Shown one piece after another: positions 8,117 to 47,893 of a stretch of DNA of 64,000 nt. The position numbers were made by a program, and so were the translations under genes. How positions within the stretch are numbered: the stretch's first letter is position 1; each line of letters opens with the position of its first letter. Origin of the DNA: Dictyostelium discoideum (Eukaryota). The stretch covers positions 3,872,001-3,936,000 of the forward strand of contig CM000153.2 of NCBI GenBank assembly GCA_000004695.1, in the 5' to 3' direction. The notes under the pieces were generated by a model that saw nothing but the letters and a program-made list of their open reading frames with translations, was not told the DNA's origin and made no database searches.

Positions 8117-8541
8117 CATTATAAATTAGCAATTACCTACGTTTCAGTTATTTGACAAAAATCCTTTTCTTTATAATTTATTATTTTATAAACAACTTTA
8201 AAGGATGTATTTAATACTTGAACGCATTCATTTAGATTTATATAATATCTACAATCTTCTCCACAAAAACAAGACATAGAAAAATAACAATCCCTTGTGC
8301 TATTTTCAAATCCACCTGAACAATCAAGTTGGAAATATGGCATGGAAAAACAATATTCTGTCCCTTTTAAAATTGCTTGGTATTGTATAGGTCCACCCTC
8401 ACAATTTGGGTTATTAAATGATTCAACTTGATAATATTTATCTTTTGATGTACCATAAAACGAATTTCCCATACTACCATTTATTAATATAAATAAAATT
8501 GATATTATAAAATAACTTGGAAAATAAAATTGATTTTTCAT
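7686..8541 (-). CDS. Secreted cysteine-rich protein with signal peptide and C-terminal hydrophobic tail (possible GPI anchor); exons 8141..8541 and 7686..8031, 109-bp intron, ~248 aa
   Basis: ATG at 8541 with signal peptide (MKNQFYFPSYFIISILFILINGS) and 16 Cys in exon 1. Donor GTAGGT at 8140-8135 (AAC|GTAGGT, phase 2) and acceptor TTATAG at 8033-8032 restore the frame (..QITE|TKTKLSDERIW..). Exon 2 ends in FTFPFFLILVFLFIL-stop. Alternative reading: exon 1 terminates at the in-frame TAG at 8139-8137 and the downstream ORF is separate (no ATG). Confidence 0.5.
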
Positions 8542-8885
8542 TTTTTTTTTTTTTTTTTTTTTTTGGGGATAAATAATAAATAATATTTTAATGAAATAAA
8601 ATTATCAATATTAAAAATAAAAAGTGTAAAATTATTTTTGTTAATTTTTTTTTTTTTCTAAATAATAAAAAGAAAAAAAAAATAATAAAAAATTAATAAT
8701 CAAAAATAAAAAAAAAAACCACACCCTTCAACCCTCATTTTTTTGTGATCTATTTTTAATTTGTTTTCAATATTTTCAAAATAAAAAAAATAAATAAAAA
8801 AAACAGTGACAGAGGTCAATATTTTTAAAATAAAAAAAAAAATAATAATTATAACGGAAATGATAATTATCTATCTGTGTAACCT

Positions 8886-8933
<48 letters not shown>

Positions 8934-9073
8934 AAATAAATAAAAATAAATAAAAAAAAATATAAATAAATAAAAGAAATAAAAAATTAAATAAAAAAAA
9001 ATTTACAAAAATATAATTTTATATATCTCCTTATTACTTTATTTTAATTTAATTATTATTTATTTATTATTAA

Positions 9074-10987
9074 CTAAGTTGAAGTATTTGTTGTAGTTGT
9101 TGTATTTGAATTATTTGATTGTTGTGGTGGTACAAAAGCATTAACTAAAGTTGATAAAGAGTTATTTGATGAATCTAATTCATTTTTTGAATGATTTAAA
9201 AAATCTTTTCTTCTTGTACCTCTTAAAGATGGATAAGCAGTTTTAAAAGTTTGTTTTCTCATTTGACGATGAAATGAAGGATAGAGTAAAGTTTTACGTT
9301 CACCACTATTTTTCAAATCCTCTAAATGAATTTTAATTGAATTTCTAAATAATGATCTACTCTTATTTAAACAAAACAATGGTGCATCTTTTTGAATTGA
9401 TGATGATAATGGTGAATTTGATGGTGATGTTGAAGGTGATGTTGATGTTGATGATGTTGAACTAACTACATTATTTGTGGTGGTGGTAGTAGTCGTTGAT
9501 GAAGTGGATAATGATGATGATGATTTTTCAGAAATTTGTTGACTATTTTTTAAAGATGTAATTAAAGTATGTTGAATATGAATTTGAGTTTTTCTTTTTA
9601 AGATATCTTCATTTCTACATTTTTCACAAATTGATTCACCATTCTTTTCAAAATATTTACCACCTTCTAAAACCTCGTTACAACAGAAACATCTGAAACA
9701 AGTTGGACATAAATTTTTACCATTAACTTTTAAAAACATGCCATCTATATATTGGTTGCATTGGTCACATTTGGTACCTACCAATTCTTCGAAATGATCT
9801 TTACAATAGATTAGACCTTGATGGTCACCCAATTGACCCTCTATTTGAATAGCACATTTAGAACAAACCAAACAAGCTACATGCCATTTAAAATTCAATG
9901 CATCCATCATAACTTCGTCAACTATTGGTAATTTACAACCATAACATGTGATTTCAGAATGAGCTTCATTCATTATATGATTAACATCGCAATCAAAGCA
10001 AACCGGTTTATCGTTTCTAATATAATATAATGATGGATCCATTGGGGTTTCATCAAAACATTCTGAACATTGAAAACATTCTCTATGATAAATACCACAA
10101 TCCAATATAATTGGTCTACTTTGATTAATTGCCAATTCACATTTACTACAAATCATTGATTCAACTGTCATTTGTCGCCTTTTTCCATTATCTTCTAAAT
10201 CATTAAATATCATTGATGGATCAATTGATGATACTGGTGATGGTTCTGTTGATTTATCAATTTCAATAACTAATTTTATAATCTCTTTATCTAATTTATC
10301 ACAAATTTCTGGTATTTTATTCTCCAAAATATTTTCAATATTATCATTATTATTATTATCATCATCATCACCATTTTGTCGATTTTTATTATCAATACAA
10401 CTTGAACATTTAAATCTTCTAATATTATTGATATTTTCAACTATAAAATCTTTACCACCTAAATAACTTGTGCAATAATAACATAAAAAGCATGATCTGT
10501 GATAAATATGGTCACCCAATTCTTCAAAATCTGATGTTTTAATAACTAAATTACAACCTGAACAACTCTTAAAAAATTCAGTACCACAATCTGTACATAA
10601 CATTTCATTATTTTCAAATACACAATCTAAATTATATTTTTTTAAAGAAAAAAAAAAATCAACTTTAGTATATTATATCACAATTTTTCATTTATTCGTT
10701 TTGAATATTTATTTAAAACTTACCACTTTCACCACCCAATGGTTTTGAACATTTTACACAAACTACACATTTCCAATGATAATTTTCAGAATTTCTATTA
10801 ATTGATGGATCAGTTGCAGTTATAGGAAGATTACATTTTGGACAAATAAATGCTAATTTAGATCCTCTATTTTTAACAATTTTACTATTATTACCCCAAG
10901 CTGAAAAACTGTTATTATTAATAATGTTATTATTATTATTATTTTTATTTGAATTCTCATCGTTAATTTTATTATTATTACTATTAA

Positions 10988-11030
<43 letters not shown>

Positions 11031-12386
11031 TGAAATGATTTCAAAAGTATTATTTGTACTTGATGATAAATTTGAAGTTGATGATGTTGATGATGTTAAT
11101 GATTTATTATTACTATTACTATTATGATATAATTTTGCTAAACCAGTTGCATAAGAAGTATTGAATACTCTTTTTTCTTCAACAGATTCTTCTGAAACTG
11201 AACTAGAGTCATCATCTCTGTCATCCTCTAAAAATATTAATTCAATTGAAAAATTACTATGGAAATGTTTTAAATCTTTATGTGCTTTATCAATTTCTTG
11301 TCTTCTTATATGAATTTTAGTTCCTTCAATAAATGCTGTATGAAAACAATAACTAAACATATGACCCTTTGAATTTCTATTAAAAAATTGAATTTGAACA
11401 TCATTAACTAATAAAATATTACCACAATCTAATTCAACTTGTTGATGAATTGTTCCTTTTTTTAATTTCTTATTTTTTTTAAAAAAAAAAATAATAATAA
11501 TAATTATTAATTAATAATTAATTATAATCAATATAGTTAATAAAATAAAATAAATAATACATACAACTGGTTTTGAATAAAATACAGATTTACCTTGTTG
11601 AACAATTGATAAATATGGTTCACAACCACCACCTATATTAAAATTTGGTAATGAATTCATTTTTATCATTGATAAAACTTTTGTAATTGATGGTGGTTTT
11701 GGTATTGGTTTACCATATTGTAGTAATGCTTCGAAATATCTAACATATCTGATTTGACTTGGAATTGTTACACCCTTACTATTGTGTGTTCTTTTATTTG
11801 CAAATAATCTCATTGACTCTGATCCAGTTTGACATTGTTTATTATATAATAGCCAACATGCTAACATTGTACCAGTTCTACCTTTACCTGCTTTACAATG
11901 AACTGCAACTACATTTTCTGGATTTTGATCCAACCACATCTCCTAATTTAAAAAAATAAAAAAAAAAATAAAAAAAATAAAAAAAATAAAAAATTGTTAG
12001 TATGATTGATTGATTTATTAAAAAAAAGTATAAATAAATAAATATAAATATAAATATTCACATACCATATCATTACAAAATTCTGAAATTATATTTAAAG
12101 TTGGTGGACAATGATCATCAAATGGATATTCACTAACTCTATCTTCAAATCTGCAATGTTCATATTTTCTTTCAGAACAAAGATTATAAACTTTATAATG
12201 GTCTGCATGTAATGTATTGAAAAATCTTTGGACATCCCTCATTCTATTCCTATATAATCCTTCCAATGATTCACTAGGAAAACCCATTGCTATAACTCTG
12301 TCTGTGATATATGATAAATCAAGATCAAAATTATACATTTCAAAACGTCTTTTCTTTTTTGATACCATTTTTCTTACTAAGTCCAT
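9074..12386 (-). CDS. PTEN-family lipid/protein phosphatase (phosphatase + C2 domains) fused in frame to five C-terminal LIM domains; 4 exons 12066..12386, 11565..11942, 10724..11468, 9074..10626; 998 aa
   Basis: Exon 1 MDLVRKMVSKKKRRFEMYNFDLDLSYITDRVIAMGFPSE..YKVYNLCSERKYEH matches the PTEN N-terminus. Exon 2 carries the exact PTEN catalytic loop HCKAGKGRTG and KGVTIPSQIRYVRYF. Exon 3 begins with a PTEN-C2-like segment (ELDCGNILLVNDVQIQFF..MFSYCFHTAFIEG, compare human PLPVCGDIKVEFF..MFHFWVNTFFIPG) and runs without a stop into a LIM zinc finger (CPKC-x18-H-x2-C-x2-C-x2-C). Donors are GTATGT (12065-12060), GTATGT (11564-11559) and GTAAGT (10723-10718). Acceptors are TTAG (11944-11943), TAAG (11470-11469) and TTTAG (10628-10627). 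The exon 3/4 junction completes LIM1 exactly (..C-x18-CTDC) and four more perfect LIM domains follow. Introns are 123, 96 and 97 bp. Confidence 0.75.
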
Positions 12387-12736
12387 TTTTCTTTATATTT
12401 TTTTTTTTTTTTTTTTTATTTTTTACCCAGGCAAAAAAAAAAAAAAAAAAAAAATCTTAAAAATAAAATTTATCTCTATGTAATTATTTTTTTTATTTTT
12501 GTTCTGTTTTTATTTTTTAATTTTATTTTTTTTTTTTTTTTTTGATGTAAAATTTTGGTCGTTTCTTGGTGTTTTTTTTTTTATTTTTTTTTATTTTTTT
12601 TCTTTTTTTTTTTTGAAAACCTCTATTATAAAAAAAAAAATAAAAACTATTGTTTGCTAAAATGATATGTTGTGACAAACAAATAATGGCAGATTAAGAT
12701 GAAACAAAAATCCAAACAATTACGACAGTGCCACGC

Positions 12737-47808: not shown

Positions 47809-47821
47809 TTTAATAAAAAAG

Positions 47822-47893
47822 CTCCCTGTCCGGGAATTGAACCCGGGCCTTTCGCGTGACAGGCGAAAATCCTCACCACTAGACCAACAAGGA
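47822..47893 (-). tRNA. tRNA-Asp (anticodon GUC), 72 nt, intron-less, followed by a T6 Pol III terminator
   Basis: Minus-strand sequence TCCTTGTTGGTCTAGTGGTGAGGATTTTCGCCTGTCACGCGAAAGGCCCGGGTTCAATTCCCGGACAGGGAG. 7-bp acceptor stem (1 G-U pair). D-loop AGTGGTGA. Anticodon stem TTCGC/GCGAA with loop CTGTCAC (GTC at 34-36). T-arm CCGGG-TTCAATT-CCCGG. Discriminator G. TTTTTT immediately 3'. Confidence 0.85.

Follow-up and report, generated by a model that had tools for sequence, protein, structure and literature searches.

lpten of Dictyostelium discoideum encodes a PTEN phosphatase-C2 module and five LIM domains in a single gene, with counterparts in other Amoebozoa

In Ci-VSP, TPTE/TPIP, auxilin and tensin, the phosphatase-C2 module of PTEN is joined to a different module with a targeting or regulatory role. 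The partner of the voltage-sensing phosphatases, the voltage sensor, lies at the N-terminus, and auxilin and tensin have lost catalysis. In Dictyostelium discoideum, Lusche et al. cloned and knocked out a gene that they named lpten for its LIM domains (2014, PLoS One 9:e108495, PMC4172592; statements about this paper refer to the parts of it that were accessible to us). The deposited sequence (GenBank KF430369) comprises a phosphatase domain, a PTEN-C2 domain and five LIM domains, and the complementary DNA (cDNA) encodes a protein of 114 kDa (PMC4172592). Here we analysed a stretch of 64,000 nucleotides (nt) of D. discoideum DNA, the window, whose numbering is used for all positions below. A gene on its minus strand encodes a PTEN-like phosphatase, a C2 domain and LIM domains, and we conclude, with a probability of about 0.95, that this locus is lpten and has this single-gene architecture. 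Unlike the other PTEN fusions, Lpten carries its partner, a LIM array, at the C-terminus and has its catalytic residues intact. The gene, its domains, its four exons and its mass agree with the published description of Lpten (PMC4172592), with no substantive difference. An earlier reading of the window from its sequence alone (the sequence-only reading) had singled out the PTEN-LIM architecture as unusual. The combination is indeed unusual across eukaryotes, but it is already known, having been published and named in 2014 (Lusche et al., PMC4172592).

The identification is based on the mapping of the published primers (Table S1 of PMC4172592), on the mass, on the domain count and on the transcript size. 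All 17 lpten primers of Table S1 map to the locus, within 8441-12711, and 12 of them do so exactly. Four show one or two base differences, namely two sequencing primers, the forward primer for colony polymerase chain reaction (PCR) and the long primer P5. Primer P8, at the start codon, occupies 12365-12386, and the reverse primer close to the stop codon occupies 9075-9100, with flanking genomic primers at 12544-12566, 12647-12711, 8585-8610 and 8441-8478, and seven sequencing primers are spaced in order along the gene. The window has no match, on the other hand, to the start-codon primer of ptenA and only poor, scattered matches to the second ptenA primer. As proposed from the sequence, the gene is a paralog distinct from ptenA. 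Moreover, the predicted mass of 113.7 kDa compares with 114 kDa in the published description, and both proteins have five LIM domains. Together with the 2994-nt coding sequence, monomeric red fluorescent protein (mRFP), which we take to be about 678 nt long, would give a product of about 3.67 kb. The lpten-rfp product published for reverse transcription PCR (RT-PCR) is 3.7 kb.

Some observations do not fit this identification as smoothly. A look-up of the exact 998-amino-acid (aa) sequence in the protein collection gave no entry. The nearest proteins, all from other D. discoideum strains, are 980-985 aa long and 96-99% identical, and differ mainly in poly-Asn length, besides other small indels. 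The identity is therefore set by the published primers and these near-identical strain variants. In addition, primers P1 and P2 predict a product of 366 bp from spliced RNA and of 463 bp from genomic DNA (10602-11064), against a published '300 bp', which may be a rounded figure. Apart from the 2014 paper, a literature search for lpten yielded one follow-up on human TPTE2 and citations only, and the account of the LIM superclass by Koch et al. 2012 does not mention PTEN. A 2022 paper on Teep1 was considered as another account of the fusion and rejected, since it concerns a different, PH-LIM protein.

The window has a GC content of 21.6% and contains poly-Asn coding tracts, as expected in Dictyostelium. 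Joining the four exons of the gene (Table 1) gave an open reading frame (ORF) of 2997 nt, corresponding to 998 codons and a TAG stop, without a single internal stop, which confirmed the four-exon frame predicted beforehand. All three introns are of the GT..AG type, with 5-13% GC compared to 22-30% in the exons.

Intron 3 cuts LIM1 between the first and second bases of codon 482, and at this point the region could be taken for two adjacent genes. In the unspliced sequence, the frame of exon 3 enters intron 3 and ends at 10713 (ORF 10713-11360), while the ATG at 10603 opens an ORF of 509 aa (9074-10603). Both features, pointed out by the sequence-only reading, are present, and they would suit a PTEN-like gene that ends at 10715-10713, the stop of the unspliced frame, and a LIM-only gene starting at 10603. 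However, the intervening 97 nt carry a consensus GTAAGT donor and a TTTAG acceptor, and their 13% GC resembles that of the other introns. Two separate products would each be left with half a LIM domain, whereas splicing gives a canonical LIM1, whose distal ligands C492 and C495 do not vary among 13 aligned relatives. The relatives comprise D. discoideum strains, D. firmibasis, D. purpureum, Tieghemostelium lacteum, Polysphondylium violaceum, Acytostelium subglobosum, Pelomyxa schiedti and several ORFs from Trinity transcriptomes. The alignment is continuous across the exon 3/4 junction, with small length differences only in the surrounding variable loop, and in two other species an intron interrupts LIM1 at this position and in this phase. 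The published RT-PCR reverse primer P2 also crosses the junction: in sense orientation it reads GTG/ATTGTGTATTTGAAAATAATGAAAT, exon 3's final three bases followed by the start of exon 4. It is exact on the spliced junction (GTG/ATTGTG) but has two mismatches to genomic DNA within its last three 3′ bases. The RT-PCR probe was described as extending over exons 3 and 4, with a signal rising about ten-fold at aggregation, and a cloned full-length lpten cDNA, encoding the 114-kDa protein, was functional when fused to RFP (PMC4172592). On the splice sites, the conservation and the cDNA evidence we rejected the two-gene explanation, which we consider very improbable; a minor, additional LIM-only isoform is a possibility. 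A gene-prediction artefact, in which a PTEN pseudogene lies by chance beside LIM-like low-complexity sequence, has nothing in its favour except the AT-rich, repeat-rich context with its poly-Asn tracts. Pfam E-values of 1e-30 to 1e-37 speak against it, as do orthologs that are 80% (D. firmibasis) to 39-54% (more distant species) identical with invariant catalytic and zinc-ligand residues, and expression, knockout and rescue have been published (PMC4172592), so that its probability is practically negligible. A single gene thus encodes PTEN, C2 and five LIM domains, and the fusion proposed from the sequence stands.

The PTEN module, which makes up the N-terminal third of the protein, shows all the tested sequence features of the family: P-loop, acid loop, TI loop, a C2 domain that immediately follows the phosphatase domain and a motif for binding phosphatidylinositol bisphosphate (PIP2). 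Pfam models of dual-specificity phosphatases match aa 85-172, and PTEN_C2 matches aa 190-313 (E 1.2e-30; 106 bits at a cutoff of 27.1; profile positions 1-132 of 133). Residues 6-315 are collinear with the sequences of human PTEN crystal structures (7JUK, 1D5R; E about 1e-67). In this alignment of Protein Data Bank (PDB) sequences, Lpten shares with human PTEN an identical P-loop, HCKAGKGRTG (Cys-x5-Arg, aa 122-131), and an identical TI loop, KGVTIPSQ, and the acid loop, the equivalent of the WPD loop with its general-acid Asp, reads FDDHCPP compared to FEDHNPP. The intact P-loop and recognisable C2 domain noted earlier were thus confirmed. The catalytic residues and the whole of HCKAGKGRTG are invariant in the 13 orthologs, as are D91 and H92 of the acid loop. 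The N-terminal RKMVSKKKRRF (aa 5-15) aligns with EIVSRNKRRY of human PTEN (SKKKRRF compared to SRNKRRY), and its residues K10, K12 and R14 are almost invariant in orthologs. The idea that the protein might act independently of a PIP2-binding N-terminus found no support, as this basic motif is present and conserved. Lpten resembles human PTEN and PtenA in its collinear PIP2-binding motif, phosphatase and C2 domain. It differs from them by about 680 extra residues, made up of a Ser/Asn linker, the five LIM domains and a tail motif, and lacks both the C-terminal tail and the PDZ-binding motif of human PTEN. The next-best matches among solved structures were Ci-VSP and TPTE2 (E 1e-59 to 1e-63). 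Auxilin also matched, and tensin, a further fusion of this module, was not among these matches.

The C2 domain is followed by a low-complexity Ser/Asn linker (aa 316-436) that leads to LIM1. The poly-Asn/Ser part of it (aa 355-436, window 10980-11110) differs in length among D. discoideum strains, whose proteins have 980, 982 and 985 aa compared to 998 here. Pfam found LIM (PF00412) in five stretches, with an overall E-value of 5.5e-37. When the ligand patterns were written out, all five domains had a complete set of eight zinc ligands, so that the LIM family pattern, C-x2-C-x16-23-[HC]-x2-[CH]-x2-C-x2-C-x16-21-C-x2-[CHD], occurs five times. As the sequence-only reading had it, LIM1 is split by the GTAAGT/TTTAG intron and completed by the next exon with exactly the proposed ligand spacing, and four further LIM domains follow. 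Seven of the eight LIM1 ligands are invariant in the 13 relatives, including C492 and C495 past the junction, and H464 is found in at least 90%. For LIM1-4 together, almost all ligand positions are invariant across the 13 sequences and the remainder is kept in at least 90%. The third ligand of LIM5 (window 9695-9709, about aa 788) is Cys in D. discoideum and D. firmibasis (NLCPTC) and His in the other aligned species (QLHxxC), a lineage-specific swap between permitted LIM ligands.

Among solved structures, LIM4-5 of Lpten matched LIM4-5 of PINCH/LIMS1 (E 2e-16) as well as LIM domains of paxillin, and LIM1-2 matched FHL1 (E 5e-8). Linkers of 7-8 residues, as between LIM1 and LIM2 and between LIM4 and LIM5, are typical of tandem LIM adaptors. 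No link to a phosphatase is described for any of the matched PINCH, paxillin and FHL chains. An assignment to a LIM class or to a specific class of partners was rejected because the structure matches are generic (PINCH, paxillin, FHL1, LMO/Lhx), and this matching gave no evidence of orthology between the Lpten array and any metazoan LIM class. Beyond the array, exon 4 encodes a Ser/Thr-rich tail and the C-terminal motif YPSFHRQM..FKTAYPS..RKDFL (aa 930-958). The motif is kept in all dictyostelid Lpten orthologs and absent from Pelomyxa and from a truncated transcriptome ORF. No Pfam family matches this motif, and we found no mention of it in the accessible parts of Lusche et al. 2014 (PMC4172592).

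The phosphatase domain, PTEN_C2 and LIM occur in one polypeptide in 13 of the 13 aligned amoebozoan proteins. D. purpureum has introns at positions matching lpten introns 1 and 2. The LIM1 intron is found at the same codon position and in phase 1 both in D. purpureum (GGT AGC A/GTAAGT...TTTAG/AT TGT) and in Acytostelium (GAG AGC G/GTATGT...CAG/AC TGT), which places the PTEN-LIM fusion before the dictyostelid radiation. Judged from these comparisons, the fusion is evidently ancient, and is found throughout Dictyostelia, in Pelomyxa and in other relatives sampled by transcriptomes. The D. purpureum ortholog as annotated (P0003, 886 aa) omits about 58 residues at the boundary of phosphatase and C2. 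These are encoded in the genome (GL871198.1, stretch L002, 2088-2261): D. discoideum aa 108-231 align unbroken to 1890-2261 of this stretch, after which a GTAAGT donor follows. The omission is probably a gene-model error. Two of the Trinity ORFs, from EukProt (P0012 and P0013), have a FYVE zinc finger after the LIM array (E 2.8e-21), which adds a module binding phosphatidylinositol 3-phosphate to the PTEN-LIM architecture.

With regard to function, lpten- cells grow and develop normally but do not fully suppress lateral pseudopods, a weak copy of the ptenA- phenotype, which is much more severe (PMC4172592). Overexpression of lpten by about ten-fold from the actin15 promoter rescued all ptenA- defects, so that overexpressed lpten can replace ptenA (PMC4172592). 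From the sequence conservation and this genetic rescue, the best-supported view makes Lpten a probable membrane-associated 3-phosphatase of phosphatidylinositol 3,4,5-trisphosphate (PI(3,4,5)P3, PIP3), with partial redundancy to PtenA. The PTEN module would act at the plasma membrane and remove the 3-phosphate of PI(3,4,5)P3, like PtenA and human PTEN. Such an activity would explain the full replacement of PtenA under overexpression as well as the weak mimicry of ptenA- on loss, where lateral pseudopods are not suppressed. The C-terminal two-thirds of the protein, in which a pair of LIM domains precedes a group of three and the conserved tail motif, would serve for docking to other proteins and would set where or with whom the phosphatase works, a role that on balance we favour. 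That the LIM domains direct the enzyme to actin or adhesion sites, as the sequence-only reading suggested, is speculative.

Weighing against this account, no assay of Lpten phosphatase activity or substrate was found in the accessible parts of the 2014 paper (PMC4172592), so the PIP3 3-phosphatase claim rests on conservation and on rescue at about ten-fold overexpression. Likewise, the literature search for lpten brought up no experiment on the LIM domains, either on zinc binding or on a partner. The single gene could encode a phosphatase that acts mainly on proteins or on another phosphoinositide, with LIM domains that bring it to its protein substrates, and the rescue of ptenA- would be an artefact of overexpression. 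Human PTEN has protein phosphatase activity as well, and no biochemical substrate data were found for Lpten in the sources accessible to us. The mildness of the lpten- phenotype and the actin15-driven, ten-fold expression needed for rescue (PMC4172592) would also agree with a different substrate. Yet Lpten keeps both its motif for PIP2 binding and its C2 domain. In PTEN, the basic P-loop residues and the TI loop enlarge and charge the pocket for PIP3, and in Lpten the basic residues K124 and K127 as well as the TI loop are identical to those of the human enzyme. Since, in addition, every ptenA- defect was rescued (PMC4172592), we regard a different main substrate as unlikely and retain PIP3 as the probable one.

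Directly downstream of lpten, a small ORF on the same strand may encode a secreted Cys-rich protein, judging by its hydrophobic N-terminus and many cysteines. The primer 'lptencDNArv', given for cDNA subcloning, maps with one mismatch and one deletion to 8591-8626, about 450 nt downstream from the stop codon, and is written in sense orientation. If the subcloning was done with it as stated, the 3′ untranslated region would extend to within about 50 nt of this ORF. The knockout-verification primer P6 (8441-8478) falls inside it. The window contains a single tRNA gene (Table 1).

Table 1. Positions of lpten, its parts and further features in the 64,000-nt window
Feature	Position	Strand	Description
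lpten gene, start to stop codon	9074-12386	-	4 exons, 3 introns, 998 aa; from spliced ORF and primer mapping
Exon 1 (aa 1-107)	12066-12386	-	Basic PIP2-binding motif RKMVSKKKRRF and first half of phosphatase domain including D91
Intron 1	11943-12065	-	123 nt, GTATGT..AG, 8% GC
Exon 2 (aa 108-233)	11565-11942	-	P-loop HCKAGKGRTG 11900-11871, TI loop KGVTIPSQ 11777-11754, start of C2
Intron 2	11469-11564	-	96 nt, GTATGT..AG, 5% GC
Exon 3 (aa 234-481 + 1 nt)	10724-11468	-	Remaining PTEN_C2 (to aa 313, window 11229), linker, first zinc module of LIM1
Intron 3	10627-10723	-	97 nt, phase 1, GTAAGT..TTTAG, within LIM1
Exon 4 (aa 482-998 + stop)	9074-10626	-	Second half of LIM1, LIM2-LIM5, Ser/Thr-rich tail, conserved C-terminal motif
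LIM1 (aa 442-495)	10586-10844 (span including intron 3)	-	C-x2-C-x18-H-x2-C-x2-C-x2-C-x18-C-x2-C
LIM2 (aa 503-558)	10397-10564	-	7-residue linker from LIM1
LIM3 (aa 641-694)	9989-10150	-	Preceded by 82-residue acidic, low-complexity spacer
LIM4 (aa 709-759)	9794-9946	-	Ends C-x2-H; strongest Pfam LIM stretch
LIM5 (aa 768-818)	9617-9769	-	8-residue linker from LIM4
C-terminal motif (aa 930-958)	9197-9283	-	YPSFHRQM..FKTAYPS..RKDFL; conserved in dictyostelid orthologs
Small ORF, 134 aa	8137-8541	-	Directly downstream of lpten; hydrophobic N-terminus, many cysteines
tRNA-Asp (GTC)	47821-47893	-	Sole tRNA gene in the window

In zyxin, paxillin and FHL proteins, LIM domains in tandem recognise actin filaments under mechanical strain. 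By analogy, the LIM array of Lpten, and in particular the close LIM4-LIM5 pair with LIM3 upstream, might recognise such filaments too, but we see this as a long shot. The linkers of strain-sensing arrays typically have 7-8 residues, and the LIM3-LIM4 linker of Lpten, with 14 residues, exceeds this length, which speaks against the idea. If strain sensing did apply, Lpten would be a tension-recruited PIP3 phosphatase that stops PIP3 signalling at loaded sites of the cortex. The suppression of lateral pseudopods would then have a direct mechanical input, which PtenA is without.

As a discovery the locus carries little weight, given that the architecture was named in 2014 and that knockout and rescue data have been published. 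What is added beyond 2014 is the breadth of the fusion in Amoebozoa, the conserved LIM1 intron, the C-terminal motif and the error in the D. purpureum annotation. An ancient fusion that has kept its LIM1 intron, together with the conserved C-terminal motif, suggests that the LIM part of Lpten is under selection.

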